Assembly (NCBI GenBank): GCA_000934665.2
Contig: JYFJ02002766.1
Location: 1-51,329, forward strand
Direction of reading: 5' to 3'
DNA: 51,329 nt
DNA from: Catajapyx aquilonaris
Lineage: Eukaryota
The translations under genes and the position numbers were made by a program. Below the pieces are notes generated by a model. It saw only the letters and a program-made list of their open reading frames with translations, made no database searches and was not told the origin of the DNA. Positions 4,369 through 32,117 of this stretch are shown here, piece after piece. The first letter of the stretch is position 1. Each line of letters starts with the position of its first letter.

Positions 4369-4565
4369 TATGTTTATGTACCTGACATAATATTTTCAAT
4401 ATTTCTAAGCTATGATTTAAGTTAACAAGGAATTGGTGTATCCGGGATGTATATAAATTGCACAGTAAAGTAATGTAATGAAAAATATCAATTTTGCAAA
4501 CACATCGGTCATTATTGCAATTGTTTTCAAGACCTTTATCAGGCAAATATTGTCCAATAGATCTA

Positions 4566-4921
4566 GGGGAGGCGGAGTGCTGCTGCGGTAACGTATGCAC
4601 CCACGGATATTAAGGTCCCGGGTTCGATTCCAGCCCGGGAACACCCCCTTCATCTCGTGCAGAGTTCAGGGTCACCTCTGGCTTCGTCTCGGGTGGTATT
4701 TCCAACAGACTAAACCACCCGGGGGAGTTCACTAAAAATGGCCACAACGTCAGATGCACTGCACCTTGCACATCCCCTCCTGTCATCCTGCCCGTGGGCC
4801 CGGGCTTTAATTAAATGGGCACCATGTACTGAACAACTCAAAATACAATAAAGGTCCATGCGATATACCCGGGAAGGGGTGAAAGCATTACCCACAAATT
4901 ATTTATTTATTTATTATTCAT
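4566..4921 (+). mobile_element. tRNA-derived SINE
   Basis: 16-bp TSD TTGTCCAATAGATCTA at 4550-4565 and 4922-4937; Pol III B-box GGTTCGATTCC at 4621-4631; (ATTT)n tail at ~4898-4921. Confidence 0.85.
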
Positions 4922-5924
4922 TTGTCCAATAGATCTATTACATTGGTTCTGTTTATTACAATGCCGGAATTATTTCTCCAGTCGTTATTTCTATTGCTTT
5001 AAATGCAAAAATGACTATACCGAGAAATAAATATTCAACAATTATTCATAGAAATGTTTACGTTTAATACTATGAATATTTCTGGAACCTTCCAATAATA
5101 TTACAGTGAAAATTTATGTTTAAAATTATGGAGAATTTTACAACGTAATCATTTCGAATCTGATATTATTAGATATGATAAATACCTCTATAGATATGTA
5201 CTCATAAACTCCACAGTAAGAAAGCATTCTACTAAAATAATGATGCCCAACCGCAAAATAAATCCTAAGAGGGGGTGTTATTTTTAAAATTTTACAAATT
5301 TTACAAATTATCCATAATTATAAATACATCCGTTTGTGATATGTGGGTCTGTCTGTCAGCCTGGAACTCCTACCGTCATTTGCCTGCCCTCTATGTTCCG
5401 CCACCTACATCCGAGTGCAACTAATTCTGAGATTTTGCAACGAAAATAATATGCCAATAGTGAATAGAGTGAGAAAGTATTTCTCAAAATTATTAAAGAA
5501 TGTATCTGAAACTCAAAAATAATTCCAGTCAGTTATAATATTCAAGTGAGACAGTGTGTGTGGCGATAGGATAAATGCCATTACGTATACTATACGTATT
5601 AATTTCTCATACATTAGCACAATGAGTGCTTTTTAAATTATTTTAAAAGTGCTCGTTGAGAATTGTTTCGGATTTTTAATTTTTAATGTTTTGAAATATT
5701 TTATTTGCATCTACTGATGTATACATAATAGGGCAACTTATGGATGGGATAAATGCCTCTCTATACACATGCACTTGTATACCGTACAACTGGTATAACA
5801 TTACTTAATGGGTATTACAGTATAAATTAACCCTGGAAAGTCGTGGAAATGACTAAAAATACACACTACACCAAAGAAGTTTTAAAATTGTTTTAAAAAT
5901 TGATTAACCCGTTTGAGGAAAGTC

Positions 5925-6060
5925 AAGTGTGAAACCAAATATCACTTATACGCATCAGTTATGCTTGAGAGCTACTGCGTAGTGTATGACCTTGACAGGT
6001 TCATGCCACGACGCCATACATGCAGTAAAATATACTATATGTCAAATGCCACTGGACGTT
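5925..6060 (+). repeat. IR distal upstream conserved block, copy 1 (others at ~8880-9040 and ~12043-12164)
   Basis: Shared core GTTATGCTTGAGAGCTACT...CTTGA(C/A)AGGTTCATGCCACGAC(G/A)CCATACAT, all three copies on the + strand. Confidence 0.8.
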
Positions 6061-6340
6061 GTACAATTTATAAATAATGAAACCAACACCTTTGTATGCT
6101 AAACAAAAGGAATTTTTGAGCATTCGGAGAGGGCAATCAGGTATATACATGACGTATGTGAGGGTACACCAATAGCAAATTCTATATTCATATAGTCGTA
6201 TATTGCAGCATGATTGCTGAGGGTTGACAGTCACGTCTTAGTCTGCTCAGAAGGATTACACTGAAACTTCATTCTATAGTGGATGTTGTCACATTAGTTA
6301 AAGACTTATCACGCGCATCAGTAACTTAAAGGCGATAAAA

Positions 6341-8229
6341 ATGAAGACTACTCTCACCTGCTGCATATCTGCGTTGTTACTGGCAATAGTGTCATGTCAT
6401 ATAACGATCCACAGGAAGGACTCTGAAGAAGGAAAGGACCAGACGCAGTTCATGTGGAACCTTCTGAAGGAGGATGAACTAGTGGAGTGTCCTCTGGTTG
6501 TGCATCATGATGTTGCAGGTGGGCTACCAGAACCCGTCATGACTTTGTTGGCAAATATGTCTCTTCTAGGACGACCAGTGCTTGTCTCCAGATCTATCTC
6601 GGCCAGTATCACTTGGACCTGCGATACTGTGGAACCAACCTCACAAACAAGCTTAGAACTGGACCCAAAGAAGAAATTAGCCAAATGTGCAATGCATATG
6701 GTCATGGCATGTTCGTCCAACTACAAAGATTTCGTGGAGGAGATCTTGGAAGAAGATGAGGCCGTCCTGGTAGCGAACAGAGCGAGGGACAAATTTGTGT
6801 TGTGGATGAGGGATGACACTGACGTCAATATCCTTCTGGAGAAGCCATTGTCTAAAATCAAATACAAAGTTATGATCAGTTCGGTTCATAACAAATCATT
6901 GATGGCCCATTCTGTGTGCTATTTCTGCATAGCAGGAAGCCCAACTATAGAACTAACCGTGTTAACCTCTAATGGGATTACCGAGGGACATAATATATTT
7001 CGGGACACGGCCAAAAACTCTCACGGGAAATTTCTAAAAGCCATAAACCAAATTGGCGACAGTCACTTGGAGTGCAATGCAACGTCCAGGAACATTCAAT
7101 TGTGCTTCTTGGGAAATGCCCTAAACTTCACTTGGAACATTTCTCAGGTCGATATTGTCTCCTTATTAATCAACAAGACTGCGTTAGGTCAAGTTATAGA
7201 TGATATAAATCACGGAAGGTTAAATTTCATCCCGAGAATGCCAGTGATTGAGTTTATAAATGGAATGGGTGATGTAACAGCCCCTTACACAACAAGCAGA
7301 CTCACTTTCCTGGCTCGAACACCACTAGAAAAGAGAATCGCATTCATTGTGGTTTTGCCATTCACACCAGGTACGTGGTGTGCAGTTGCTTCTTCGTTGT
7401 TCATTTCAAGTGTCACTTTAGTAGTGCTTTCTAAACTACATCACAAGTCGTTTAAGAACAATGCCAGTTACTTTGAATCATTAAAATCGTACATGCACTA
7501 CCTCGTGAAAGTAGCTCTAGAAGAGACTACCCCTTTTCCTGGTCGTCCCTCATTGAACGTTTTTGCAATGATCTGGATTTATTTTTCGATAGTGGTGACC
7601 ACAGCCTACCTTTCCAGACTGTACACTCTCCTGACTTATCCCCCGAAGAGGCTGTTCCAGACACTTTTGTGAAATTACAGTTTTCTAATTTCCATATGAA
7701 AATGTCAAAACTGTCTTATGACATATTACATGATAGCATTGATTTTGATGAAAATGACCCTTTCAAAATTATGCTTGAGAGAGTAGAACCAGTGACAGAT
7801 TATGATGAGTGTTACCAATATGTAGTCACTGAAGACAATGTCTGCATGGACAGCAGCTGGTGGTTAAAGGAGTCATTGAATCGTTTGGATGTGTATGGTC
7901 AGGACGTTGCTTTTATATCCGACGATAGCCTAGGCGTTGGGTACGTAGCTATTGTGGTTCTAAATGGACATATTTATTCGGAGAACTGGAACTACTGGAC
8001 GCACATCTTTTACAGCATTGGATTGAATGAGAAGAGTGAGAGGTTGTTGGAACACAAAAGATTGTTGGATGCTGCTCAAGCCAGAAGACAGGACCATTTT
8101 GTTGATGTTGACAAAGGAATGGTGGTGTTTTCACTACAAAGGTTGCAGGGTCATTTTATTGTCCTGTTCATTGGGCTGGGCCTTGCGATTACAGTCTTTA
8201 TAAAAGAAATTATATTTAATGTTATTTAA
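6341..8229 (+). pseudogene. Divergent ionotropic receptor IR2 with a 1-bp frameshift
   Basis: ORFs 6341-7672 and 7669-8229 together give a full paralogue. One extra C in the C5 run at 7640-7644 restores YPPEEAVPDTF (compare FPPREDVPDTF in IR1). It may be a homopolymer sequencing error. Confidence 0.8.
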
Positions 8230-8879
8230 TGTATAATCGATCCCTAGTTAAACTCCCAAGGGTCCAGACTTTACGATCACCCTCAGGTGCGTTTGTTTAC
8301 ATGCCAGTTGACGCGGCAGCCGCGTGGCCTTTGCTTGTTCGACTCAGCTTGGCTCTCGCCAAGTGGACTGTGGGACTGTCATGGTAGTTCAGTCACCATC
8401 CAAGAGATGGCAGGAGTATATTGAACCCTTACAAAATTATGTGTGAACCTGTAACATGGCTTTCACGCCTGCACACTTGTTACGTTGGGGAGAGAAAGTT
8501 GTCTGACACTCTTTGACTTCTCCAACACTGTAAACAACTACACAATTCCAAGAGAATATTTTGATGTTAGTCTAATAAAATGTAACTGATGTAAAATAAT
8601 GGCATTAAATACATGACAGCACATTTTTTTAAACATTGATTATTTATTTATTTTCAAAACCTATTAATTCATCAATTTTCTATGCTAATATACAGTATAA
8701 GAAAACCACGTCTGATACACCCTCATTGCACTGCCTGCACGTTGTTCTCGTTGATGGTGGCGAAGAGGACACCACCCACTCTAAAACAAAGGATGTGACG
8801 GAGAGACACGGTGTCAGACCATACCCGCTGCTGATCCGCTGACTAAGCTGGTCAATAGTCACTACAAGGTCACTAAAGC

Positions 8880-9040
8880 TCACAGCCCATGACAATTCAA
8901 ACTCTCGTCGACATGGTGTGAGTAGCCTACAAATATCACTTCTACGCACCAGTTATGCTTGAGAGCTACTACATATGAACTTGAAAGGTTCATGCCACGA
9001 CGCCATACATAAAATATAAATGTCAAATGGCACTGGAAGT
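8880..9040 (+). repeat. IR distal upstream conserved block, copy 2
   Basis: Matches 5925-6060 and 12043-12164. Confidence 0.8.
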
Positions 9041-9292
9041 CGTTCACTATCAGTTGAACTTACCCATGGAGTGCAATAAACAGAAATAATTCAATAATTC
9101 AATGAAGAGATACGTATTTCAACAGAGTGAGATGATGTGGAGATGATAGCCCTCAAGACAATATATTTGAAAAATGGAAAATCTTAAATAGAAAAATGGA
9201 ACTTAAAAAATAAAATCCGCAAAAAATTTCACAACAGTACCAAGTATGTGTATACTCATGTATTTTCAAAATTTTGTACATCGATTTCTGTG

Positions 9293-11200
9293 CTAAAGAC
9301 ATGTGACAGTGCTATAGTGAAGTACAATAATTTCTTTTATAAAGACGGCACTCGAAAGGCCCAACCCAATTAACAGGACAATGAAATGACCCTGCAACCT
9401 GTGGAGTGAAAACACCACCCTTCCTTCATCACCCTCAGCAATTTGGTCCCTTCTTCTGGCTTTGGCAGCATCCAGCAGTCTTCTATGCTCCAGCAGCCTC
9501 TCTCTCTTCAAGTGAAGTCCAATGCTGTAGAATATGTGCGACCAGTAGTTCCAAGCCTCAGCATAAACAGTTCCTTTTAGAAGCACATCTCCTATATACG
9601 ACTGGGAAAAACTATCGTCAGATATGAAAGCAATGTCCTGTCCATACACATCCAAACGATTCAACGATTCCTTGAGCCACCTGCTACTTTCCATACAGAC
9701 ACTGTCTTCAGTGATTACATTTCGGTAACACTCATCCCAGTCTGTCACTGGTTCTATTCTTCCCCACATAATTTTGTAAGGGTCATTCTTATCCAGGTCA
9801 GTACCCCAGCCTCTTACATTATAAGTTTCCTTTGGCATCTTTATGGAGAAGCTAGAAAACAGCAATTTCTCAAAAGTATCGGGGACATCCTCTGTTGGGG
9901 GAAAAGTAAGGAAAGTGTACAGTTTGGAAAGGTAGGCTGTGGTAATGACTACTGAAAAATATATCCAGAACATTACAAAAACATTCAATGCCGAATGATC
10001 AGGAAATGGCGTGCTCTCTTCTAAAGCTACTTTCACAAGGTAGTGCATATATGATTTAAATGACTCACAGTAACTGGCCTTGTTCCGATTCAACTTTTGA
10101 GGATGTAGTTTAGAGAGCACTACTAAAGTGACAATTGAAATTAACAATGACGAAGCAACCAAACACCACATGCCGAGTGTGAAGGGAAATGCTACAATGA
10201 ATGTGATCTTCTTTTCTAGTGGAGATCGAGCCATGAATGTCAATTTGATACTCCAGTAAGGGGCTATTAACTCACCAATCGCATTTAGAAACTCTATCAT
10301 TGGCATTTGCGAGAGGAAATTTAATCTTCCTCTATTTACGTCATTTAAAACTAGACCTATCGCAGATATGTTGCTAAACAATGAGGCAAAATTGAACTCA
10401 GAATTATTCCAAGTGAAGTTTAGCGCAATGCCCAAGAAACACAATTGAATGCTCCTGGATGTTGCATTGCACTCCAAGTGACTTTCATCAAAAAAATTTA
10501 TAGATTTCAAAAATTTCCCGTGCAAGTTTTTGGCCGTATCCTTAAATACGTGTCTATCGGCAATTTCATGGGATTGTAATATGGTCGACTTAACAGTTTG
10601 GTTTCCTTCTTTGCAGAAATAGCAGACGGAATGGACCATCAAAGAGCTGTTTTGAATCGAGTTAATCATCACTTTATATTTGATTTTAGACAGTGGGTCC
10701 TCCAGAAGGACACTGATGTCATTGTCATCCCTCATCCACAACACAAATCTGTCCCTCATACTATTCACCACCAGGATGGCCTCATCTTCTTCCAAGACCT
10801 CCTCCATGAAATCTTCGTAGTTGGACGAACATGCCACGACAAGATGCACTGCACACTTGGCCATCTTCTCCTTTGGGTCCAGTTCTACACCGGATGGTAT
10901 GCTTGACTCCACGGTATCGCAGGTCCAAGTGCTGCTGGCCGAGCTCGATGTGGAGACAAGAACAGGTCGGCCAAGAAGAGACATGTTTGTCAACAGAGTG
11001 ATGATAGATCCTGGCAGCCCACCTGCAACATCATGATGCACAACCAGTGGACACTCTACAAGTTCATTGTCCTTTAAAAGGTTCCACATGAACTGTGCCT
11101 GTTCCTTTCCTTCTTGACTGTCCCTCAAGTGAATTGGTGTGCGACCTGACACCACTGCCAATAACAATGCAGATATGCAGCAGGTGAAAGTGATCTGCAT
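9293..11200 (-). CDS. Divergent ionotropic receptor IR3 (635 aa, intronless, intact)
   Basis: Signal peptide, N-terminal extracellular domain, M1, pore region (YLVKVALEES), M2 WIYFSVVITTAYLSKLYTFLT, S2 and M3 FSLHRLQGHFIVLLIGL. Confidence 0.9.
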   Translation of the reverse strand: MQITFTCCISALLLAVVSGRTPIHLRDSQEGKEQAQFMWNLLKDNELVECPLVVHHDVAGGLPGSIITLLTNMSLLGRPVLVSTSSSASSTWTCDTVESSIPSGVELDPKEKMAKCAVHLVVACSSNYEDFMEEVLEEDEAILVVNSMRDRFVLWMRDDNDISVLLEDPLSKIKYKVMINSIQNSSLMVHSVCYFCKEGNQTVKSTILQSHEIADRHVFKDTAKNLHGKFLKSINFFDESHLECNATSRSIQLCFLGIALNFTWNNSEFNFASLFSNISAIGLVLNDVNRGRLNFLSQMPMIEFLNAIGELIAPYWSIKLTFMARSPLEKKITFIVAFPFTLGMWCLVASSLLISIVTLVVLSKLHPQKLNRNKASYCESFKSYMHYLVKVALEESTPFPDHSALNVFVMFWIYFSVVITTAYLSKLYTFLTFPPTEDVPDTFEKLLFSSFSIKMPKETYNVRGWGTDLDKNDPYKIMWGRIEPVTDWDECYRNVITEDSVCMESSRWLKESLNRLDVYGQDIAFISDDSFSQSYIGDVLLKGTVYAEAWNYWSHIFYSIGLHLKRERLLEHRRLLDAAKARRRDQIAEGDEGRVVFSLHRLQGHFIVLLIGLGLSSAVFIKEIIVLHYSTVTCL

Positions 11201-11688
11201 TTTTGTTTCCTCTTAATTACTGATCCACGTGGAAATATTGTTCTCTAAATAATGTGGCAATGTACACTTTAGAATGAAGTTTTAATGCAATCCTTCTGAG
11301 GAGACTAAGACATGGCAAGTCTACCTTGCCCAGCAACCATGCTGCACTGTGGAAATAGAATTTACTATTTTCCACCTTCACTCGCGTTATGCAGAAAATA
11401 TGTAACGAACCTTACCCTCCCCGAACGCTCAATACTTCCTTTGATTTAGACTTCAAAGGTGTTGGTGTTGCTATCTCATTACTTATAAATACAACTGGAG
11501 GTGAGGGAGCCATCATGGTGAAGGTAAACACACTGAAATATCAAGCTCGGAATATATTATACCTCTGGTGTCTGTATGTTAAATGTTTCTCAATGGTATT
11601 GCAGTAATCTCACCCTTTGTTGATGAAAATCTTGGTCCAACAAGTAATCAGTTTAGCTTGTACATTATCACGTGTACAGTAATGTCAC

Positions 11689-13033: not shown

Positions 13034-16000
13034 ATTATCAAATACAGTATGTTTCACACCACTCCATTTTACGCCGTTTTACGTTAACGCTGGTTTGAAA
13101 ATGACATCATAAAATTTTTAACTTGAAAAATTGTGCAAAATACGACGATAAAAACACAATCTGCACATAAGCACAACACTTCAACACTTTTGCGTCCAAA
13201 TGCACGACCATAAAATAATGCTATTTTTTGTCTTTCGTGGTGCCTTGTGGCGGGTTCTATCGATAAATACAGTACTGTATTGTTGGTCTCATCGGAACCC
13301 TCCGAAGTCTGTTAATTACCCTACGTCTACTGCAGTTCTTGCCAAAAGAAGGGAGAAGAGGTCCGGGTGCAGGTGTATTGCACAATGCTGTACAAAAGGA
13401 ATTGACTCCTTGCTTACATGAACTACTGCAGTTATGTTTTAAATGCAATAAAATCATACACAATTAGTATTGTAAGTGTTTGACCCTGACTACCCTGTTG
13501 GTGGGTGGAACCCAGCTTTTCCCAACCAGAGGGTTTGGGTTGTAAAAGGGACAAGGAGACAGTCTGTATTCAGCTTGGGACAGAGAAGGTCAATAAATAC
13601 CAGTGCTCAAGGAACCCACCTAGATTTCTTGGTATGGGCTATCTAGGGGCGGACCCGGGGCCGTCACAGTATACCTGCATACTTTGTTCGTTGTTGTTGA
13701 TTGGTTGAATTTTTTGTCATTTAGATCTTCAGGCTGGACCAGAACCTTCTTCACGGTCTTATAGTAACGTGAAATGCACTAGAAATGAAGAGACAACACA
13801 ATTATCAGCCATTTATTTTTATTACTTCATAAAGGATGCAAATTAAAACATTGTACATGATCGAAACGTAATATGCCAAAACCTGCATTGCCCGTCGCTT
13901 TGTAATAGGCTCATTCTCAACTGACAGTCACAATTTGATACGAAGCTGACTCTATGGATTATACATTGACATTTTTTCAACCCTGTACAATTTCTTAACC
14001 GACACCCTCTATCAAGACCGTCATCTCACCCCTAATTTACACTTTGTACAAAAAAAATCACTTTCTCTTTGTAACAACAATGTACAAGTATACAACATTG
14101 GATAGAAATCGGGTTTTGGGACAATCCACTCAGTAGCTGCCCTTTCCCGTGCGTTTTTATGAATCAGATATGAAGAGTACAATGCAGCATAATAAATTCA
14201 CATGCTTTTTTTGTGACTAGATGTATTGAAAGCAGCTGAAAAATTGCGACTTAAAGGCACTTATACAAAAAATTTTCCTTCCATTTTATAGTTATAGTCG
14301 TAATGTTTCTACCTAGCTGAAGCTAAAATGAGCTTAAAATGTAGTTCTTTTTCAGAACATGTAACCATTATGCGCACAGATGTAGAGCTTTCTCAAGAAA
14401 TAAATTCATCTTGTGTAACAATGGAATTGCAGATAAGACGAAGTAGTGTTACTTGTGCTGTTACACCCATGCAATTGGAATGTGGCTCGTTGCATCGTTA
14501 TTCACAGTGGAAAGGTGTGGTGGCAAAAAGCACGCCTCACTTATTCACTCAATTAGAACATTGAAGAAGTACGTCCATAAAAACACATTTTAGAATCTTC
14601 ACCACTAAAACTGAAATAAGGATCGCACTAAGGGCTGGTTGTATGAAAGCAAATTAGGGAAAATATCAAACTAAGGTATTTGCAATACATACCGGAATTA
14701 CTGAATATTTTCTCCACAATTTGTATTCGTACATACAGCCCTTAATGAATTTTTTACCTTACAGATTACTTCACAAAAACCAAATTGCATCCGTAAAGCA
14801 AGGAATGAGGGTGTTTTGCTACACTTTACTTTTTGAGCGATTGATTATTTCGCCCGCACACCTTACGTTATGCATATTTTAATTTGAACAAGCATTTTTA
14901 GGCGCCTTGTATTTGGCATTCACACACACACATCCGTAAATCTCGATACTTTGCACAACCAGTTACTGCCCTGTTATTTTATTGAGTGACTGGGTGGTAC
15001 GGAATACCTCATCAGATAAGACATGTAATAGCGTGAGACTAGGAGAACAATATAAGTCTTGCAAAATCACCATCTGAAACATGTTAAATAATTTTCTTAA
15101 ATATTCTCACTTCAATTCCGATTCATCCATCCCATCACGCTCTTTCTCCTACGCTCAAACAATGGCTTTGACAAAAATGCTTGTGAGTATCCATACTGTA
15201 TCCAGTACACGACCATTATTGGTAGAATGAAACTGATGAAATCTAATTTGAATAATCCGGCACAATAAATATCGCACCATCTCAGCCATATTAGCAATAA
15301 TGGTAATGTCAATTGTATTGTCATCCATATGATTGGTCTGAACATTTGACCAGTTTTGAAATATTTTACTCTCGCTTCAGTTGCTACGTCTATAAAACTG
15401 GATCCTTACGCTCCCTAGTTACACATTGTCAAGTTTGGTTTCATATCACTTCAATTGCCGTGGCCTTAACGCACACAATTGTAGTATTGTCGGTGTCTCC
15501 CTCAAAATTTGCCGTGGAAAAGTCTGTTGTAAAAGACAGTTGAATACAATTCACTGATGGCTTTAGTCCCCTCGAAATACACGTGTCCTGAACTGTGATA
15601 TGGTTTTAAGTCATTATGAGGTTAATGTTTTCTGCCTTGCAATGAATTGGAGTATTTTGCATAACTGAAATTTCCAACCTAAAACCAAAGGATCAGATAT
15701 TGCTTTAGTATCCGTGTTCTAACAAAGCGCAGGCAAACATTACAGAGAAAACTAACAAAAATGTTAAGTCCTCTCTCCTCTCACCACGAGGCAGCTAAAT
15801 TTTTATTAGTTCCTTCCATCACACTTGAAGGATGGAACACCCTGTGCATAGTCTGCACCATACTAAATTTGCAGGTATGTTAAGCCTTCAGTGGATAATC
15901 TTTGGCTTATTTTGCAGTGGTAAAACTATTCTTCCAGCATTAGCAACAAGTCGCTCCTGCAACATGCAAGGTTGTGTTATCTAGCTTCCGCAGCCAGCTG

Positions 16001-16459
16001 CAGCAGTTTACACCATTACAACACTGCACATTGCATATATGGGTTTCTTGTAAAGGATGGCAGTGTTGAGGACACTGCCCTTGTCGCACCTTATCCCAAC
16101 TCATTTGGCTGTCATACATGTGCCATTTGCATATTGCAAAGTGTAAATGTGGAACAACTGCTTCTTGGGCAGCAATCATTCGGTTAGGCTCATCACAATT
16201 GCTTTAACACGTTGCAACCACCAGGAGTGCCTACAACACCTCACTACAATTAACACCGGGTACCAAATAAACACCATGTATATTTCACCTTATCACTGTA
16301 CCTCCCAGAGAACATCCATGCACATGGGTCTCGAAAGTACAACACATTTTCAGTCACTACGTCTCACCAGCGTGTAAAAACATTTGTTCGGCTTATTCTG
16401 TGAGTATGGGTGAAGTCACTTGAACAGGGCTTTCACTACAGTCATGGGGCAGGCAACCC

Positions 16460-18355
16460 TCATGAAAGGAGGATGTCCAGAGCTTTGTCCCTGTCGTTCC
16501 CAGAGGAGACCAGAGCATGAACGATCTTTTCCTCTGAGAATCCCAAACCTGTGAACTGAGCCAGGAGTTCCAGGTGGCGTCTAGCCGCCTCCTCCTCCCC
16601 ACCGTGTGAAAAGAGGGCAGATTCGCACTGCTCTCCCGGATAGCCCAACTCCTCCAGGGATTGAACCAGCAGGAGATGCTCTACAACCTGAAATAGGTTT
16701 TGCAGCAATTATGTGGATCTACCTACCTTCGTCCAACTCACCTTCTTGTCATCTGCCCCAAGTCTTTGGCATGCCCTGGCCACTCTCGCAGGAGGGAAGC
16801 CCATTTCAGACAACCTTCTAGCTAGAGCCCTCTCCTCGGAACCCAGCTCCATGGTCGGATCGGGCAACTGGTCGTTCTTTTTGGCAGCTCCGCGTACACC
16901 AGTCCTGGTCTGAGCCCGCGCTGGAACCCTAGGAGGAGGGGTTCTGGCTGTCTTTCTTGCTTGGGAGTCCAGGGGTGCACCTGTCAGGCCCTGTGACCCT
17001 TCCATCTCTTTCCCAAGCTCTTGGACCAAGTCAGGTACACTCTTGGATACTCTAATGGGATTGCTTGCTACGGAATTAGGATATGGTATGGGGTAGGCTG
17101 GAGGAACGTACTGCGGATAGGACGTCTGGGAGTAGGTGGGAGGAGCATACGACGAGGTGCTGGGAACTGTCCAGGTGACGGGTGCAGTTGTATACTGCTG
17201 GGTTGATGCCATCGGAGTGTAATATGAGTTGTAGGCAGACGAGTATGAAGGAGGATATGTTGGAGCTGTTTTGAAGTAATCCATAATTAAACCTCAGTTT
17301 CGCAAATCAATAAATCATTATGCAATAGTTACCATATGCGGAAGCAACGCTGACACCCTCGTTATTGTTGCCATTAACCTTCTGAGGTTGCTGTCCATAA
17401 TGGGGATAGAAACCATTCACCTGTGATGCTGTAGTGGTATTGTTGTTATTATTGTAGCCACTAGCTCCGTACTGGCTTGGTTGCCTGAGAACCCTGGCCA
17501 GTTCCTCCATATCATTAATGGTCTTCAGCTCCATGTTGTCAAATGGTGACGAGGTGTCTGCTTCAAAGTCGGCCAAATTCAAAGGTGGGTAGCTAGGCAA
17601 ATGACCTGCCGATGGCATCATGGGCTGACTGCAGTTATCAACCTGAACTGGGATAAGAATGTGGGTCTCCCGTGCTCTGTCTGGTGAACCCGATGATTGT
17701 GCTGAAAATGAATCATCTTGCATTCAGGTCATACTTTATTACATCAGAGTTGCAAGCCCTCTGAACAACTCTGACTCTACTTACGTTTATCAACAACTTG
17801 CACTTCAGGTTCAGAAGTGCCGCTAGTCGGTATAGCTTCATCAGACTTGTCGCAATCATCAGGATTGGTTTCTTCCGCGCTGCTTCCTTCAACCTCCGCA
17901 CTTTTCCTTCTCTCTTCCCTCAATTTCTGTTCCTCCTCCTCCGCTTCCTCCTTCTTTCTTCGAGCCTCCTCCTCTGCTGCCTCAAGTGCCGCTATACGCT
18001 CCAGTCGCTTAGCCTTAGCCGCTTCTGCCTCTTTCCGCTGGTTCTCAATGTGCGCCAGGATATTCCGCTCCAGTGAGAAGTCATACTAGAAAATACACAC
18101 TGTATATTACCCGCAACTAATTGACAGGCCAGCCATTACCTCTTCACTGAGCAAGTCGTACGGTATCTTCGGGTGGAACCCAACTGGAAGCGTCACCTTC
18201 CTCGGAGGCTTGAACTTCTCCCCAACTTTCACAGGAACGCCGTCCATATACGTAAAATCTGCAAGGTTACGACAGAGAATTACATGTTGAGTCACCTGGG
18301 CAGACTCTTACTTACTGGCTCCATCCTTTCCCTCCGCTCCACCTCCATATGCCAT
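16460..18355 (-). CDS. UBAP1: Ubiquitin-associated protein 1 (ESCRT-I subunit), multi-exon
   Basis: Exons approx. 18355-18316, 18258-18140, 18085-17785, 17716-~17333, ~17292-16743 and ~16687-16460. N-terminal UMA domain (YMDGVPVKVGEKFKPP...YDFSLE), central DFEADTSSPFDNMELKTINDMEEL, and C-terminal UBA/SOUBA (MGFP...LGYP...LGFSEEKIVHAL...DRDKALDILL). Confidence 0.88.
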
Positions 18356-18677
18356 GACCTGGTCACCTTTGGCGGTCCAAGCCCCACCGCCACCGCACAC
18401 AATTCAGCTCATGGGAAGTGCGGTAGGTCCATCCAGTGTTGACCCAATGTTGGTGGCAGCAGCCCCACTGGTGGTCTCCTTCTGGTTGTCCACTGGTTGT
18501 CTCAAGTCCCTTCCTCTGGGTCCTTCTTCTCCCCCTTCTTCTTTATCATCTGAGGGACTTTTCAGTAGTGCCAACATGAAAATGAGCCTCATAGAGCATA
18601 GCTGCTATCCATAAACAGTGGAAAAAAGCAGCTACATTCAAGATTGCCAACAGGCGGTGCGTTCTTCAACCTTTGGA

Positions 18678-18710
18678 GGTGACATCCTGGTGACGTCCTG
18701 GTGAGGTCAC
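18678..18710. promoter_or_regulatory. 3 x 11-bp tandem CRE-like repeat in the putative bidirectional UBAP1/HSCB promoter
   Basis: GGTGACATCCT-GGTGACGTCCT-GGTGAGGTCAC lies between the divergent start codons at 18355 (-) and 18893 (+). Confidence 0.45.
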
Positions 18711-18892
18711 ACACTGCGCCGCTCTGCACTTTCTGAACTGGTGACCGGATGACCTGATCACAGGATAAAAATGTAAGTAGCAAATATTGCGCCATGAGGC
18801 ACATGGGGATGAGGTCACTGAGCACATGCCGCAGGCAATCATGAGCAATAAAATGGTTTCTAATATTTTGTACAGTATTTGCAGATTTGGTA

Positions 18893-21413
18893 ATGCGTGC
18901 GGCCACCGCAGTACTTGTCCGGAGTGTGAGGAACATTCACGGAACCGCTGCTAGTCTGACGCATAGGTAAGGACATTGCCGTACAGGGCTGACACGAGAC
19001 TGGGGAATGCGTGCAATTGAAATACTTCTCCACATGCTCCAGCCCAGCAGCTGCCTAATTACAATCTGCGGTTAGATATAGAACGAGCTTTTTTGAGCGA
19101 AATGGATGTAGGCATGTTTCATGGTCTGGCAGGAATGTCCTCGTCAGATTCTTCGGATGAGGATGAGATTTTTATACAGCTTTTGGATTATGTGCTGCCA
19201 CCGCCACGAGTGTTTAGGGATAGATCCAATCCGTTTGACACCCTAAGTGACGATGACTTCCGAATCAAGTTCCGCTTAACCAAGTCGACTGTGGTGAAGC
19301 TGCTGAATACGGTATGTTACTTAAGCAAATAATTACTGTCACATATCATCTAGAATAGAATGTACAGTAAAACAATATTCTCATAATTGCACTCATTCAT
19401 TGCAGGTTGAGAATCAGTTGGAATTTGCCAGCCAGCGGAACAGGTGTATGAACCCTATGAACCAGCTTCTTATGGCACTACACTTTTATGCTAGTAGTTG
19501 CCATCAGCAGGTTATAGCTGACATGTTCGGGGTCAATAGGGCAACTGTCAGTCGGCTTGTACATAGAGTGACGAGAGTTCTGGCTGGGTTACGTCCCACG
19601 TACATCCGCTTCCCATCCACAGAGGCGGAGAGGCAGGCCACAATGGGAGGATTCCATGCCATAGCTGGATTTCCTGGCGTGATTGGTGTGATTGGTTGTG
19701 TGCACATTCCTATACAGCAACCAGGGGGTGATGATGAAGAGGCTTTTCGAAATAGGACAGACCAGTTCTCGTTGAAGGTCCAGCTTACCTGTGATTCATC
19801 CCTTCGCATTACTAACATTGTGGCAAGATGGCCAGGATCAGTAGATTGTTCCATGATTCTAGACAGCTCAAACATTCGTGCCCGGTTTGAAAGTGGTAAT
19901 GTCCCAGAAGGGTACCTCCTGAGCAATGGCAACTATGCATGTCGGAAATACATCCTACCGCCAGTTGCTAACCCTAAAAGTCCTGTTGAGAAACAGTACA
20001 ATGCTGCACATCTTGCTACCCGCACATGCATTGAGAAAACTTTTGCACTTCTTAAGCAGCGTTTTCCAGGCCTAGGAACCGACCTGCGTCTGAAACTAGA
20101 CAACATTCCTCCCATGATTGTTGCAACCGCAGTTTTGCACAATATTGCTCGCATTGTGGGGGAAGATGGACCGTGTCGTGTTCGTGGAGAATGTAAGGTG
20201 GAATTGGATGATCCGAAAGACATTCTACCACCTGTTGAAGTGCTTGGGGGTGACAGGGCCATGAGGAGGGCTGTGATTCAGAAGTTTAACAAGGGTTAAT
20301 CCTTTTCAGCTGAACAAAAAATTGGCTTCACGGAAGTAACATTGTTAGAGTTTTTAAATTTGTAAATTATATTTCTAATCAATCCACATGAGTGGTTTTA
20401 AGTAAACGTGGTGTAAATTATGATTAGGATGTTTTTATTAATGACATGACGTGCCATGCCATGACATGCCCTATTTCTATACCAGCCAAAAAGATTGGGC
20501 CTTCAAAACATTCTGGCTAGAAAAAAACTAACTTGTAAGTAGATTTAACATGCAAGTGTCACACTGAGTTGTATAATGTACCTTTTGGATCCCTCACAGG
20601 ACTTCGGCCAGGCTGCAGTCACGTCCAGGCCACATACGAATACCATGGCGGTGTTACTCAGCAAAACCTCCAGAGAAACAGTGCTGGAAATGCAACCAGC
20701 CTATCGCTAACCTCTCCTTTTTCTGCCCTGGATGCCAGTCCATACAACCCCTGTTGGGATCACCAACCTACTTTGAGATCCTAGGAATCGAGAAGACGTT
20801 TGACGTGGACCCATTAGTGGTCAGCCAGAAGACACGGGAGTTGCAGCGAAGGTCAGTTGCCACACTATTCGCTACGCGGACCATTCAGAAATGTTTTTTC
20901 TGCAGATTCCATCCGGATCTGTTTGCGAATGCTAGTGAGAAAGAGCAGACGATGGCTCTGGACCACTCAGCCTTGCTCAACAAGGCCAACTCCACCTTGT
21001 CCAATCCAATGGAAAGAGGCTTGTACCTGCTCGGACTGCAGGACATGCGTATTGAGGATGGAACCAGCGGGGTCGAAGGGCCCTTCCTTATGGAGATGAT
21101 GGAGATGAATGAGGAGCTGGAGGACATCAAGGAAAAGGAGCAGGTGGCAAAAATCAAAGAGAAGGTTCAACGCGCCATTCAGGGACTAGTCAGGTTAGTT
21201 GGGCATCATAGCTCGAGAAGCTACATGATAACTCTGTACCTGCAGAAAAATTCTACAATATTATTTTAACCTTTCTTTTCCAGTGGAGTGTCCAAGGCCT
21301 TCAAGCAGAATGATTATGACGGAGCCAAACAACTTTTGATACAAATGAAATACTATGTGAATTTGATTGAAAAACTGAAGGAAATAGAACTGAAATTGGG
21401 CATTGTTTCCTGA
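18893..21413 (+). CDS. HSCB: Mitochondrial Fe-S cluster co-chaperone HscB/HSC20 (247 aa)
   Basis: Exons 18893-18966, 20600-20851, 20906-21193 and 21284-21413 total 744 nt with consistent phases. Presequence-like MRAATAVLVRSVRNIHG; tetracysteine CWKC...FCPGC; J-domain FHPD; C-terminal FLMEMMEMNEELE. The exon 1 assignment is inferred. Confidence 0.88.
19102..20299 (+). CDS. Harbinger transposase-derived (HARBI1-like, DDE_Tnp_4 family) protein, predicted catalytically inactive (367 aa)
   Basis: Exons 19102-19311 and 19406-20299 with a phase-0 GT-AG intron. Motifs FRDRSNPF..LSDDDFRIKFRLTK, HTH QLLMALHFYASS..QQVIADMFGVNRATVSR, GFPGVIGVIGCVHI, ARWPGS and RTCIEKTFALLKQRF. Confidence 0.88.
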
Positions 21414-22006
21414 CGGATTGTAATTTGTACAGAATGTTGCAAATAGTACTCGGGAGGGGTTTTCTTCCTACATTGACACTAAAAACTAAATTGAAAGTGA
21501 CTAGTCGCAAAATAAAAATGTCTTTAATGAAGTGTAAATAAAGGGGTGTAATACTGTACAACATTGTGGATATTAAGTAACCAACCCTGGCAATACATTT
21601 CTTTCGTCTTATTCACAGTGACAATCAAGTAACAGGCTCTCATCCACTGAACATTTCTGGAATGCCGTATCACAGTAAACATCAAACGTACACACAAGGT
21701 TATGTCTCTCGTGACTTGCTTTTTGTACAAAACTGCAACATGAAATATCTGAAAGAATTCAATACACTGTCGACGGAAATTAGTGGTGGCCGCATGTCAC
21801 AGATTATTTTAAGTACACAAAATACGTGATATTCAACTCTCACATAAAATCATCTGCCATCTTCTCATAACCTCGTAATAAATCGTAATCACTGGCAGGT
21901 TGTCTTTAAAGGCTTACGTCCTGTATACTCAAGTTAGTCAAAAAATATTTTGGAAAAGGCATTGAAATTGGCAGCAATCATTCAACTTATGATTCCACAT
22001 GCTCGT

Positions 22007-24181
22007 TCATATTGAAGTTGGATTTATTGTGGCTCCTTGCAACAGTGAGTTCCCGCCAATAATGGCTGTCCCAGCCAGTATGAACCTGTATCCAGTGAGA
22101 CTTCCCAGCAGCCTGAAGGCCGCAACCTCGGCATAGGTGACTCCCCCTACAAAATACACCAGAGCAACTTTCTGGCCGACTCCAGTGTTGCGTTCTCTTT
22201 CACTGATCTCGGAAATGGTCTTTCCAGGAAGTACCCTCAAGGCATCTTCCAGACCCATCAGTGAAAGCGATTTCTCCAGCACTCGCCTGGCAACACCACA
22301 TGCCAGAGGTAAGTACGAGTGGTTAAACACGTACCCAGGGTCAGTTGGTGTTGATATGTTGTTGTCCGTGTTGCCACCCACAAGCTTCAGTTGTTTGGAG
22401 ATTGATTGGAATGGGCTGCGCTTGTTGGGCAAGGAAAGGAGCTTGGCAAATGTCTCAGTGGTTGCCGCAGTGGTGGAATCGGCTGGCTGTGCCGCCATCG
22501 TGAACAGACCAAGCTTCTCTAGGCGATGAAGAGTGACCATGTGTTCGAATCTGAGGGTGCAAGATAACATTAGTGGTAAATAGGTGATCCCGCAAGTAGT
22601 GGTTTCGGCTGTATGGCAAGTTAAGCTTGACTAATATGAACAGGTTAAATTATTATTATTATGAGGCTTAAGGGTGGATAACTACCCATAGCTATGCAGG
22701 AACTGCGTCCTCAGTGCCCGATGCTCCTTAGCTGAAATTCCATCTTGTGTGTGGGAGTAGAGACACAAGAGCCGCAGAACTAATGGCAGGGACATGGATT
22801 TGGCCATACCATCTTCAATGAATCCCACTGCGTCTCGGTACATACCGCTCAGGATGTTGCTCTCCGTCAGTAGATGGCCCTCAAAGTTCTCGCCCTTTGA
22901 CTTCACTATCACTTCGGCTGCCCCTATGTGTAGTGCCAGGGAGCGGCTTTGGGCCTGAAATGGATTAATGCCTACATTACATATCACTCGGCACTCCCCA
23001 CAAAAATAAAAAGCCCCACTTTGTACCTGTATATCACGGAGCTTAGAAGCAATAAAGCTTTTCATCTCAGTGACGGACAGCTTTGATGAACTGTCCTTCA
23101 ATTGCTGAAGCCATCGAGCTTTAGACTGCAGGTATGGGAATATGTGAGCAAAGTGTTTGTGTCGTATCTCATTGTAAATGCCATCCCTGGATGTCAACTG
23201 GTACTTAATTGGTGCTCCTTCCTTCCCTGTCACTTCCGCGCCAAACTCAACAATCCCGCAACGGACACCAAACGTCTCATCCAACAGACTCTCATAGGTC
23301 AGCGGGGTCAGCAGGGGCGTCGTGTAGTCCACGTTGCGATCAAATATGAACAAATGCGTCACCTCTTTTGAGTGAAACTTTGGACGATCTACGCGATCAA
23401 ACAAAACCTAGGACAAGAAATGTGTTAGAATTTTAGAACAGCACATTTGGATGCCAACTTACTTTGACCATACCACTGACAATGTCCGAATACTTCCCAT
23501 GCCCATAGATATTGGTGATCTGTCCATACAGCATCTGGAAGCTCCATATCGAGCGTGCCACAGACGGCAGCAGAGACTGATCATCGTTCACAAACAAGGC
23601 TGGAAACAACTTTGGAAACTCGAGCGAGATAATGTCCTGGTCCAGCGGAATCAGCTCCCACGGAAACTCCTTCAGCTGGACATGCGCATAAAGGCCTTCT
23701 TCCTCAAACAAGCTTTTGATGGAAGTCAGAAGCCTCGGCACCACTATCATCAAATGCTTGTACTTCCTGCCACGCCCCAACTCACATGTCACATGGTCCG
23801 CAATAACCTTGGCCAGCAGTAGATCCGAGTAGAAGAAGTACACCCGCTGGTTGTTGGTGCACGTTGCTGGTGCCGTCCGCTCCAGTTTGTATATCTTCTC
23901 CACGCCATGATCCCTGTAATGCAGTACAGTGTTACTGCAGCCAGGTCACACTTGATGGCTACTCACTTGAGATTATTGACCCTGCATATCCTGTCCAGCG
24001 GCTTCATCAGATGGGGGTCCAACAGCAGATCCTTCTTCCCCGGCAGCTGGTCCAGCAGCTGGCAGAGGTTCTGGCACGAGGCCTGCCTCAGCAGCTCCAG
24101 GTCCACCGATGACCCTCCATCCTGACCCCTGCTGACCCCTGCTCTTCTGCTGACCACCCCGCCCAACTGAAGCTCATCCAT
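22007..24181 (-). CDS. VPS33B: Vacuolar protein sorting 33B (Sec1/Munc18 family), multi-exon
   Basis: LLDQLPGKKDLLLDPHLMKPLDRI, DRNVDYTTPLLTPLTYESLLDETFG and VYFVGGVTYAEVAAFRLLG...GYRFI. The LPGKKDL and YRFI motifs favour 33B over 33A. Confidence 0.88.
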
Positions 24182-24573
24182 CCTGCTGCAAATGACGCTC
24201 ACTCGAATATGGTGGCAACTAACCCCCTACCTGCCGACTAGGCAATCTCGCAACCACAAAGTGAGCCACAATCTGGCAACCTCGCAATGTGGCACCACAG
24301 GATAAAGATGTCCATAACGTTTTTATGGCCATCTTTATCCTGAATGGCGAAGAATCAATATGGGGCGATTCGTCAATAGACCTGTGATCACTTGGCAGGC
24401 GCGCAGGACCCAGTCGCCAGTGTGGTACCGGCACTGGCAGGGCCAACAGGACGGAGTAGCAACGGATCAGGTATTGTAGAGGAATTGGGGGGCCGTGACC
24501 AAAACGGCCTGTTGTTAAAATCATAATTTTATTACATAAATATCACTGCAGTAAAATGTGCAGTCACACAATA

Positions 24574-25649: not shown

Positions 25650-27538
25650 ATGATGACAGTGATATCAACAATGATTCTGATGATACTAATATCAACAACA
25701 TCCAGTAAAGACTCTCAGATCACTGTCCAGATTCACATTGACGTCGAGCAACCAGTTGCCTACAGAACCAGCGACCGATTCCTCAGTGTCTCCTTAGACA
25801 CAAGCCTCATCTACCGCTCCTGGGCCGAGCTGGACTTAGGGTGAGTCATCCTCCACACTCCACACCTCACACTCCACACCAAATCGTTGCAGGTCTGTCA
25901 AGATTCAGAACCTGGCAGCCGCCCTGAATCCGAGCTATATCCGGTTTGGTGGGACGTACGCCAACCTTCTTCTGTTTGAGCCGACATCGAACAGAAACAC
26001 CGAGTTGCTTCCAAGGTTGCTTCTCTCCTCCGAAGACGATACTAAACTCATGACTGAACTTGGAGAACACACTGAGGACGAATACTTCGAGATGCCAATG
26101 GCACTTGCAGAACTGTCAAATGTCACATTGTTTCAGGACGACTTCATCCAGCTATACAGGTTTGTCGAGAAATCAGGCTGGGACCTCATATTTGACCTCA
26201 ATGTGCTGCTCAGACGGGGGTCAAAATGGGATCCGGACAATGCTAAGAAGATCATTGAGTTTGCAGACACAAATGGGTTCGATATCGCGGGATGGGAGCT
26301 TGGAAATGGTAAGGTAAGTGATGGAGTGTTAACACTGACAATACACTGATCTATGCTTCAGAACCAAACACCTTCATGGAAATGTTTGGAGTCAATCTGA
26401 CCGCATCCCAGCTGGGTAAGGACGTGGTCCAGCTGAGGTCACTTCTGAACAAGTACCCCCGGTACCGTGACTCTCTACTGCTTGGTCCAGACGTGACCAG
26501 AGGAAATCTCCTTACTTTCGATTACATAGAAGAATTTCTGGAGGAATCCAAGAGTGTCGTCGATGGTGTCACTTGGCACCAGTGAGTAACGTACGATCAA
26601 GACGTGACCAGTGTCTGAACCTTCTTCTTACAGCTACTATTTCAATGGCCGTACAGCCAAACCTGTCGATTATTTGAATCCGGGTATATTTAATTCTCTG
26701 AGGCGACAGATAAACAGATTCATTAAGGCAGTGAGCAAGGTGAACAGCGACACTCCACTGTGGTTAGGTAAATTCAATCATTTGACAATCCATCAGATGT
26801 CCCTAATTTTACAAACAAAACAGGTGAAACATCGTCTGGATACGGTGGAGGAACTAAAGGTATGTCAGACCGATTTGGAGCCACATTCATATGGTTGGAC
26901 AAACTGGGATTGTGTGCCAGTATGGGTGTGAAAGTCGTTGTAAGACAATCCTTTTACGGTTCATGGTACAGTCTGCTTCATCGGAAGACCACTGATCCTG
27001 TGCCTGTAAGTTGAATGTTGATCAAGTTTTTGGAGTGTTTAACCCTCTTTTGATAGGATTACTGGGTGTCCTTGTTGTACAAACGTTTGGTCGGACCTCC
27101 AGTGTTGGGTTTGACCCATAACTTCACCAGGTACGAGCGATTTTACGTACACTGCACCAGAGCTGCTAAAAACAAAAAGGAGTACACACCAGGGTCCGTC
27201 ACTGTGTATGGGATGAACCTGAAGAGTCGTACAGTCAAAGTCGTTTGGGGTAACGAGTGGGAGGGTGTGGTTCTGCAGTACCTCCTGTCTTCGGATGAAC
27301 TTGAGTCACCGTAAGTCTGTCAGTCAATACTTATTATAACTTAACGTCATATGTGACGACACATTACAGGGAAGTGTACCTGAACGGGGATTTGCTGAAG
27401 CTACGTCGGGACGAATCGGTGCCGTTCCTTGTGCCTAAAGTAATTTTTCCTGAGGATGGAATTACTCTACCTCCACATACTCTGGGATTTTGGGTGATAC
27501 CCGAAGCACATGTAAAAGCTTGTATTGGTAGAAAATAA
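25650..27538 (+). CDS. Heparanase-like GH79 glycosidase, copy 1
   Basis: Seven exons: 25650-25840, 25893-26308, 26362-26581, 26634-26767, 26824-27005, 27057-27310, 27370-27538. Signal peptide; catalytic WELGNEPN and WLGETSSGYGGG are formed across introns; WLDKLG and PDYW are present. Confidence 0.9.
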
Positions 27539-29917: not shown

Positions 29918-30223
29918 GACTGTCGTAGGTCCCTGCAAATAACAATTGTTGTAATGTTGACATGGTGATGTTCACTATCATTGTACTCAACAGAAGGATT
30001 GGTTATCAATAAGATTTCCTGGGCGAACTTCACTGTTGAAATGTTTACAACTTCGCCAGAGGATTTCCTTGAATTACACAAAGGAAAGGAAATGGTGGCG
30101 ACATATACCTACTTCAATGAATGTCATATCTATCAGCTGTCAGATGATAATATGTCGTCATTAGTGAGATAAGAACTTACTACATCGATAGTAAGTAGGA
30201 CATGGTGTGATTAACTTCCTCAG

Positions 30224-32117
30224 ATGACCCAAGCAAGGACAATGCTGAGCACAACAATACTCCTGGTGATGGTAACATCACTTCAGGCATGTCGCGACAG
30301 TGTCCAGATTTACATCGACACAGGTCAACCAGTTGCCCATACTATCAACAACCGGTTCCTCAGCATTGCCATAGACTCAAACCAAATCCGACACAAATGG
30401 GGCAACCTGGACTTTGGGTAAGTGACCTCCAGTTGAATGACACTTTAACCTCAGTCAAATATTGCAGGTCACGAAAGGTTCAGTACTTGGCCTCGTCTCT
30501 GAACCCATCATACCTCCGACTGGGAGGTACGGCCGCTGACCTCCTCTTGTTTGACCCATATCCGGTCGAGGACACTGGGTTCCTTCCTGATGACTTCAGA
30601 CCGACTGAACTGGGACAATATTCGGAGCGGGAGTTACGGCAGGTCATGGCCGGAAAGAAGATGACCAACTTTACCATGTCTCAGTATGAATGGACCAGGC
30701 TGAACTGGTTTACCAGGAAAGTGGGGTGGGACCTCATATTTGACCTCAATGTGCTTCTGAGGCGGGGATCAAAGTGGGATCCGGACAATGCGAGGGAGCT
30801 TGTGTCGTTTTCGGATAGACATGGGTTCAACATCTCTTGGGAGCTTGGAAATGGTAAGCTAAACACTAGCCTTTGACCTTCCGGTTTGACCTTTGACCTC
30901 GATTCACCGATTATGCAGAACCAAACTCCTTCCGGCATGTGTTCGGGGTCAATCTGACCGCATCTCAGCTAGGTCAAGACTTCACCCAGCTGAGGTCACT
31001 CCTGAACAGATTCCCCAGATACCGAGATGCTCTGGTGGTGGGTCCTGACGTGACCCGAGGAAAACCAAGAGTGTATCGGTACATCCGAAGCTTCCTGAAG
31101 CGAGCCAAAGGAGTCGTCGGAGCAGTCACCTGGCACCAGTGAGTGAACTCTGACCTCGATTGACCCAATCCACAAGACATGACCTGTTGCTGTTGTTTCA
31201 GCTACTATTTCAATGGCAGGACAGCTACATTGGACGATTTCTTAGATCCGGATATATTTGATTCTCTGAGGCCACAGGTCAGAGGTGTCATGACCGCTGT
31301 TAGAAGTGTTGATCCCGATGCTCCAGTCTGGTTAGGTAAAGTCTGGTTGTACATGAATCCGGTTACAAAATTAATTTTGCAACCTATAAAAAGGTGAAAC
31401 TTCTTCGGCATATGGCGGCGGAGCACCAGGATTGTCCGACCGTTTTGTGGCCAGTTTTATATGGATGGACAAACTGGGACTGTCCGCTAGTATGGGTCTG
31501 GACTTGGTTATAAGACAAGCGTTTTATGGTAGCTCGTACAGTCTTCTTGATTCAGACTGTGATCCTCTTCCGGTACGTTTCGTTTCTCTGATTTCTTTTG
31601 GAATATTGCAAGTACCAGTACATGTAACTATTGTTTCTGACAGGATTACTGGTTGTCAGTGTTGCACAAGCGGTTGGTAGGACGGACAGTACTGGTTCTA
31701 AGTGGTAATTTCACAAACTGTGAGCGGTTTTATGTCCACTGCACCAGAGAAGACCATAGAACAGCGTACACACCGGGGTCTGTCACTGTGTTTGGGATGA
31801 ACTTGAATCCTCATCCTATTAGGATTGGTTGGGTCAACAAATGGGACGGACCTGTGAATCAGTACCTGCTGAGTTCGAATGACCTTTGTTCACAGTAAGT
31901 ACCTTTGTCTCTCAATCTTGACGACCACACTCACTGTTACACTTACAGGGATATGTACCTCAATGGACAGCTGCTACGAGTACTTCCAGACGGATCACTC
32001 CCGGACATTGTACCCGATGTGATTGACCCCGAAGAAGGCATTGACCTACCTTCACACACACTAGGTTTTTGGGTCATACCCGAAGCAAATGTATCAGCTT
32101 GTTTTGATAATAAATAA
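30224..32117 (+). CDS. Heparanase-like GH79 glycosidase, copy 2
   Basis: Seven exons: 30224-30417, 30468-30853, 30919-31138, 31202-31335, 31394-31572, 31644-31894, 31949-32117. Intron positions match copy 1; LRLGGTAADL, WELGNEPN and WLGETSSAYGGG are present. Confidence 0.9.

Follow-up and report, generated by a model that had tools for sequence, protein, structure and literature searches.

The 51,329-nucleotide stretch of Catajapyx aquilonaris DNA analysed here (positions 1 to 51,329 of contig JYFJ02002766.1, assembly GCA_000934665.2; hereafter the window) contains a HARBI1-like gene derived from a PIF/Harbinger transposase, with a degenerate catalytic triad and a last exon that is spliced onto exons of the host gene HSCB. 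Our preferred reading, to which we assign a probability of about one in two, is that this gene is tied to the HSCB transcription unit and encodes a transposase derivative without catalytic activity, probably one that binds DNA or protein, whose domestication is under way or complete. Coordinates refer to the window, and both genes lie on its plus strand. Transcript evidence comes from contigs of X1, the single public run found for this DNA, whose kind is not on record. Between 16000 and 24500, these contigs omit 11 stretches in three genes, each with GT..AG or CT..AC ends, and we therefore conclude that they derive from spliced RNA. The 11 introns are all 53-135 nt long with canonical ends, four of them measuring 53-55 nt, and they served as the RNA-confirmed reference for our donor and acceptor scores.

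The HARBI1-like open reading frame (ORF) lies upstream of the HSCB exon that begins at 20600 and is divided between two exons. Exon 1 (19102-19311) provides 70 codons from the ATG. A 94-nt, phase-0 intron predicted from the sequence (19312-19405, GTATGT..TTGCAG) separates it from the coding part of exon 2 (19406-20299), which provides 297 codons and a TAA stop and holds a helix-turn-helix region and a DDE_Tnp_4 domain, for a total of 367 aa. Exon 2 matches DDE_Tnp_4 (PF13359) with an E value of 6.9e-26 over profile positions 1-158 of 158, and its match to HTH_Tnp_4 is weak (21.4 bits, with a cutoff of 27). No Pfam family matches exon 1. It is colinear with the N-terminal block of homologues, 68 of which cover at least 40 of its residues at a best identity of 41%, and the predicted splicing restores this colinearity across the junction. 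The acceptor of the intron scores 7.4, inside the trained range. For the three closest homologues the protein calls start exactly at the window's exon-2 boundary, suggesting that the ancestral element already had the 94-nt intron. The base composition of the ORF also differs from its surroundings, with a GC content by codon position of 0.57/0.42/0.46 versus 0.29-0.40 in non-coding sequence nearby. Frame 0 alone gives a positive host-codon score. Antisense ORFs at 19504-19932 and 19933-20277 have no family match.

We examined the relationships of this protein using a collection of 5.8 billion clusters, from which the window's own protein is absent. There are 176 relatives at E values up to 1e-5, the best of them 51% identical; among JGI metagenome contigs, 65 pattern matches yielded no confirmed relative. 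For a tree of 48 rows, we combined the window protein with 42 sequences from among the first 45 matches (three shorter than 285 aa were dropped) and five more distant ones. In this tree, the window protein is sister to four unnamed proteins, all with an intact triad (Shimodaira-Hasegawa-like approximate likelihood ratio test, SH-aLRT, 89), and its branch is 1.03 long compared with 0.62-0.82 for the sisters from the same node. It is 34-36% identical to fish proteins named HARBI1, and vertebrate HARBI1 keeps the DDE triad. Since the proteins it groups with are unnamed and retain the full triad, the window protein is not a HARBI1 orthologue.

An AlphaFold (AF2) model of exon 2, computed from a 24-row alignment, reached a predicted local distance difference test score (pLDDT) of 88.0 and a predicted template-modelling score (pTM) of 0.87. 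Searching the Protein Data Bank (PDB) by sequence with the HARBI1-like protein gave no matches, nor did Foldseek with the model at E values up to 0.001. The weak Foldseek rows (best E 0.012) consist of integrases from retroviruses and of DDE transposases, among them ISCth4 (TMq 0.42) and Tn5 (TMq 0.40); they agree with the fold class and are no test of it.

The initial annotation of this locus, made from the sequence, had described a catalytically dead Harbinger derivative, and alignment bears this out. We aligned the protein with 95 of 120 listed homologues, those of at least 280 aa (25 were too short and were dropped), and defined 54 columns with a conservation of 85% or more. At the first catalytic aspartate, a column that is D in 98% of the 95 homologues, the window protein has glycine (IGCVH in place of IDCTH, 19694-19696). 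At the second, which is D in 100%, it has asparagine (SNGNY in place of GDSGY, 19925-19927). The glutamate, E in 99%, is kept (E280, 20033-20035). In the model these positions fall in the first strand (92-103), just after the fourth strand (170-172) and in a long helix (193-219), as in DDE enzymes. DDE enzymes lose catalysis when their metal-binding aspartates are replaced. With G-N-E in place of D-D-E, the HARBI1-like protein cannot be a transposase. Judged by its sequence, the ORF is a non-catalytic relic of a Harbinger-type transposase.

Changes are not limited to the triad. The protein deviates at 12 of the 54 conserved columns (S101, D167G, T169V, K188T, N194K, H217D, D218C, D244N, G246N, T255P, R281K and G284A), whereas the other homologues deviate at 3.0 on average (median 2) and at no more than 13. 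Besides the two triad aspartates, the replaced residues include five whose conservation among homologues is 94% or higher. The RWPGS, LHN and R..E..K.RF blocks are intact.

The hallmarks of a mobile element are gone as well, in agreement with the same annotation, which had reported neither terminal inverted repeats (TIRs) nor a partner gene. No inverted repeat pair brackets the ORF, and comparing its 5' flank with the reverse complement of its 3' flank gave a best score of 15, where the shuffle median is 16; the terminal repeats and 3-bp target duplication of an active element are missing. A gapped alignment of ~18674-18707 with ~20592-20627 (score 25, which the best of 100 shuffles also reached) was rejected as a TIR since one arm lies in the promoter region and the other across the exon-2 acceptor. 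Between 11.3 and 35.4 kb, 89 ORFs reach 70 aa or more, and none of them is a Myb/SANT/MADF partner, a scan that split or shorter ORFs could escape, and the 51-kb window holds no second copy of the HARBI1-like ORF. A Harbinger element that is autonomous, can still move and lies in HSCB by chance could account for a full-length DDE_Tnp_4 ORF with a helix-turn-helix region. We find this barely credible, however, as it is already contradicted by two non-acidic residues out of three in the triad, and also faces the absence of TIRs and of a Myb-like second ORF from the scanned region and of any close copy from the collections searched.

The host gene has three exons from 20600 onward. Exon 2 of HSCB (20600-20851) contains the tetracysteine motif, the start of the J domain and, in our model, the rest of a mitochondrial presequence; exon 3 (20906-21193) contains the HPD motif and the start of HSCB_C; and exon 4 (21284-21413) ends with the stop codon. 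X1 contigs support all three exons, confirm the introns at 20852-20905 and 21194-21283 and identify 20600 as a used acceptor. Pfam matches HSCB_C in exons 3 and 4 (E 4.1e-8 and 8.4e-7), and a library search returned 3099 HSCB homologues at E values up to 0.001. The spliced product has an N-terminal CxxC..CxxC motif, and its HPD motif arises only once the 54-nt intron at 20852-20905 is removed. This intron is itself open in frame, and the unspliced ORF reads across it.

The X1 contigs also connect the HARBI1-like exon to HSCB. A 912-nt contig spans 19624-20535, containing the last 676 nt of the HARBI1-like ORF and a tail that extends 235 nt past the stop (20300-20534) and ends at a GTAAGT donor. 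A 65-nt intron with GT..AG ends (20535-20599) joins this exon to HSCB exon 2, the 20534>20600 joint being present in one X1 contig. This joint is supported by its canonical ends, by the strength of the donor and by the 912-nt contig, which ends at the same point, and the X1 contigs hold 10 further canonical joints in neighbouring genes. A scan for poly(A) signals detected neither AATAAA nor ATTAAA from the HARBI1-like stop up to 21511; the first two AATAAA signals, at 21511 and 21537 (21511-21542), come after both ORFs and past the HSCB stop. Based on the contig, the joint and the absence of an earlier signal, the HARBI1-like ORF is transcribed with the HSCB exons as its 3' part. Coupling of the two genes, by intronic polyadenylation or alternative splicing, had been suggested beforehand. 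The physical link through the 20534>20600 joint upholds the coupling; with no poly(A) signal from the ORF stop to 21511, the coupling seen is not intronic polyadenylation.

This joint has consequences for coding. In the 20534-joined form, a TAG (20518-20520) shuts the HSCB frame, which offers no ATG until 20952, past the J domain, so the isoform can encode the HARBI1-like protein and not HSCB. The HARBI1-like stop (20297-20299) precedes the junction at 20534, which means that no in-frame fusion to the HSCB exons is made. An in-frame donor inside the HARBI1-like ORF (19911, 5.3 bits) would fuse it to HSCB and was rejected because the X1 contig runs through it. We conclude that physical coupling of the HARBI1-like exon to HSCB expression is supported.

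For HSCB itself to be made, the exon at 20600 needs a coding exon upstream, as the initial annotation had argued. Its frame is open only from 20577, and it contains no in-frame ATG before the cysteine motif. We compared its N-terminus with those of 122 M-starting homologues that have the cysteine motif, drawn from the 150 best of the 3099 matches. More than 27 residues precede the first cysteine in 115 of the 122, with a median first-cysteine position of 64 (quartiles 49-81). Together, the missing ATG and these long N-termini imply that an upstream coding exon is needed. As candidates we took all 185 open ATG-to-GT segments in 16000-20599 that end in phase 2, and we rated the donor of each against a matrix derived from the 11 donors confirmed locally. 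The segment at 18893-18966 (MRAATAVLVRSVRNIHGTAASLTH), 24 codons plus 2 nt, ranks first, with a donor of 7.9 bits inside the range of the confirmed donors (3.8-10.8 bits). It ends AG|GTAAGG in phase 2, and joining it to HSCB exons 2-4 would give a coding sequence of 744 nt, or 247 aa plus the stop. The first cysteine would then be residue 53, with 52 residues ahead of it compared with a homologue median of 63. The putative presequence contains 4 basic and 0 acidic residues among its first 25, its first acidic residue comes no earlier than position 50, and the RCY|S ahead of the cysteine motif resembles an R-3 cleavage motif. The earlier description of this exon, including its phase, its joined length and its presequence-like character, is accurate as a reading of the DNA.

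If the exon is correctly placed, HSCB intron 1 would span 18967-20599 and hold the entire transposase-derived gene. Its length of 1633 nt would exceed that of the longest confirmed local intron about 12-fold. This outsized length fits insertion of an element into a short intron and leaves room, too, for 18893-18966 not being an HSCB exon. In that case the locus would consist of two neighbouring genes, with HARBI1-like transcripts reading through and HSCB starting otherwise, either at a non-AUG codon in the 20600 exon, where an in-frame CTG is present at 20613-20615, or from an unrecognised exon. The sole upstream junction seen for the 20600 acceptor is at 20534 and not 18966, and an intron so far beyond the local 53-135 nt also favors this arrangement. 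We nevertheless think it unlikely. The TAG at 20518-20520 closes the HSCB frame in the 20534-joined form and leaves a first ATG only past the J domain, nearly all homologues (115 of 122) have the longer N-terminus, the first-ranked of the 185 candidates is also presequence-like, and no loose contig end at 20600 hints at an exon outside 16000-24500. The nesting proposed earlier holds as far as strand and position are concerned, the HARBI1-like ORF lying between the best HSCB exon-1 candidate and exon 2, and it stays provisional in that exon 1 is a candidate.

The start of the proposed exon 1 is also part of an 18-nt direct repeat. Its copies, at 18883-18900 and 18997-19014, are identical at 15 of 18 positions and cover the proposed exon-1 ATG and a second ATG in the putative intron. 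The repeat score was reached by 9 of 500 shuffles, and the repeat could be due to chance or to a small duplication at an old insertion site.

The proposed exon 1 might also be spliced to the HARBI1-like gene. A weak candidate acceptor, TTTTTTGAG|C (19083-19098), lies 4 nt before the HARBI1-like ATG and is in frame with HSCB exon 1. It is the only in-frame site among the 8 AG sites in 18990-19101 and would define a 131-nt intron, which is inside the local intron size range. Its score of 4.4 is below those of all 11 confirmed acceptors (6.1-15.0). In a bolder reading, one pre-mRNA would give rise to two mutually exclusive proteins, with the choice made at donor 18966 selecting either HSCB, through 20600, or the dead transposase. 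Use of 19098 would fuse the HSCB presequence to the whole HARBI1-like protein and send a DNA-binding, non-catalytic transposase into mitochondria, and each such transcript would withhold one HSCB mRNA. We consider this scheme a long shot.

Under our preferred reading of a domesticated derivative tied to HSCB, the locus would have formed as follows. A PIF/Harbinger transposon would have inserted in sense orientation into a short HSCB intron 1, after the exon encoding the start of the presequence. The element would then have lost its terminal repeats and partner gene, leaving the two-exon, 367-aa transposase ORF intact. Its protein, if translated, would keep the helix-turn-helix region and the RNase-H-like fold and would have lost metal-ion coordination through the G-N-E substitutions. 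The last HARBI1-like exon has no canonical poly(A) signal and is spliced to the exon-2 acceptor of HSCB, whose exons 2-4 would serve as its 3' untranslated region (UTR). The HSCB protein would come from an alternative splice, 18966 to 20600, that skips the whole cassette, and expression of the HARBI1-like gene would in this way be tied to the HSCB transcription unit. Selection on the ORF and a host function for its product are further elements that this reading would entail.

A number of observations count against this reading. No X1 contig covers 18272-19623, and the 18966>20600 and 19311>19406 junctions are in no transcript. The shorter side of the single contig with the 20534>20600 joint is 29 letters long, below our bridging criterion of 31 letters. 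As a rule, a stop codon upstream of exon junctions exposes an mRNA to nonsense-mediated decay, and the observed isoform, with its stop upstream of three such junctions, may be a target. The sole difference between X1 and the window in the covered parts of 16000-24500 is a G>T at 20120 (one contig, depth 5.8), and it is non-synonymous: within the HARBI1-like ORF, it turns a Val of the IVATAVLHN block into Phe. No orthologue of the protein was found among the 5.8 billion clusters, where the best identity is the 51% given above. Its terminal branch is only 1.3-1.7 times as long as those of its sisters. The changes are concentrated in the catalytic domain (11 of 39 columns, compared with 1 of 15 outside it), and this concentration is not significant (Fisher p 0.085). 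Finally, we simulated neutral decay by substitutions until 9-12 of the 54 conserved positions had changed (4000 runs each), and the ORF stayed open in 4-10% of runs, a figure that indels, which were ignored, would lower.

These points bear on whether the gene is instead a decaying transposon fossil, a dead copy that is open by chance and whose splice sites place part of it into unproductive HSCB transcripts as a poison cassette or retained intron, without a protein of host function. We regard this as quite possible, though short of probable. The catalytic residues and the five further highly conserved positions are lost, no orthologue was found that could show constraint, and the simulated decay leaves the frame open in 4-10% of runs. 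In the isoform that was observed, the stop codon is premature in its placement and HSCB cannot be encoded. The ORF also carries no separate poly(A) signal, and the only variant seen alters the protein. Pointing the other way, 367 codons, the ATG and both sites of the 94-nt intron are intact, and simulations without indels overstate the odds of an open frame. The fold-defining blocks have been retained, and the third-position GC content and codon score are still unlike those of the non-coding surroundings. Moreover, the TIRs and partner ORF are gone and the ORF is not, a pattern that serves as a criterion of domestication in the portion of PMC9710019 available to us.

Insect genes derived from PIF elements have been recognised by an intact ORF, the absence of TIRs and target-site duplications (TSDs), synteny and a low ratio of non-synonymous to synonymous substitution rates (dN/dS), according to the accessible text of the same source (PMC9710019). 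The window gene has the corresponding anatomy: its coding region is intact, it has no transposable-element hallmarks and it is transcribed. It resembles insect DPLG, APLG and BPLG and vertebrate HARBI1 and NAIF1, which are described there as animal PIF/Harbinger derivatives with intact ORFs, often two exons, and no TIR or TSD. In contrast to the window gene, those insect and vertebrate genes were defined by cross-species synteny and dN/dS values of 0.1-0.25, and several have an adjacent, co-domesticated Myb/MADF gene, again within the text available (PMC9710019).

A degenerate triad also has precedent in plants. Arabidopsis ALP1, which derives from a Harbinger transposase and reads DGA where DDE would be expected, acts as an accessory protein of Polycomb Repressive Complex 2 (PRC2), as stated in the part of PMC4671723 available to us. 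Like the window protein, the non-catalytic PRC2 accessory proteins ALP1 and ALP2 belong to this transposase superfamily, and ALP1 has non-conservative changes at two of the three triad residues (PMC4671723, same portion). ALP1 differs in being conserved across land plants and in having a function established by genetics and biochemistry, whereas the window gene comes from another kingdom, reads G-N-E, most likely lies inside another gene and is spliced onto it.

The splicing arrangement recalls the route to new genes outlined by Cosby et al. In the section of their preprint that we could consult, a DNA transposon inserts into a host intron and is then captured by alternative splicing via transposon-borne sites, the site being an acceptor just upstream of the transposase ORF in 8 of the 9 cases examined (bioRxiv 10.1101/2020.05.07.082677). 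The window locus resembles those host-transposase fusions in their first two steps, intron insertion and splicing between transposon and host. It departs from them in that, in the isoform observed, the window ORF stops before the junction; the host exons are therefore nothing more than 3' UTR, and a fusion protein is not produced. A literature search for HARBI1 together with HSCB found no paper.

Non-catalytic Harbinger derivatives that serve as chromatin-complex subunits in plants, and transposase capture by splicing in vertebrates, are already known. The window gene is a non-catalytic PIF/Harbinger-derived gene and as such of a known kind; its RNA-supported wiring into a host gene is uncommon. 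The locus would represent an invertebrate intermediate, in which a transposase without mobility has been spliced into an essential housekeeping gene, short of a fusion. Should the ORF be under selection, it would offer a simple system for studying how a nested transposase gene borrows a 3' end and whether this affects HSCB dosage. If it is not, the locus would be an ordinary fossil making unproductive HSCB isoforms.

On the minus strand, a UBAP1-like gene with UBA domains and four spliced junctions in X1 occupies 16.4-18.3 kb. It is head-to-head with the proposed HSCB exon 1, and the gap upstream of 18893 is promoter-sized. Within this gap, at 18676-18712, are three near-copies of a GGTGA(C/G)-type motif, GGTGACATCC, GGTGACGTCC and GGTGAGGTCAC, the middle one with a TGACGTC core. 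Located between the two genes, they are candidate elements of a bidirectional promoter. A VPS33B-like gene of the Sec1 family lies on the other side of HSCB, at 21.5-24 kb on the minus strand. One of its exons is at most 44% identical to anything found, its best named relative being a mollusc protein at 42%, which indicates that this lineage is poorly represented in sequence collections.

Farther downstream, two heparanase-like paralogues (25840-26349 and 30211-30876) separate HSCB from a CLPX-like AAA+ gene (34868-36977), which is on the same strand as HSCB, ~14 kb away. The CLPX-like product is, like HSCB, a mitochondrial matrix protein. A MATH-BTB gene is also among the flanking host genes in the window. 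Both ends of the window, at 2092-11212 and 41086-51237, are occupied by an array in which eight or more genes of ~640 aa, or fragments of them, follow one another in tandem; most have no introns, and both strands are used. Some copies are apparently split or truncated, such as 2092-3051 with 3229-4368 and 6302-7672 with 7477-8229. The genes have a signal-peptide-like start, and the one that was scanned matches Lig_chan (ligand-gated ion channel) with an E value of 1.6e-10. The array appears to be an expansion of variant ionotropic receptors that is specific to this lineage.

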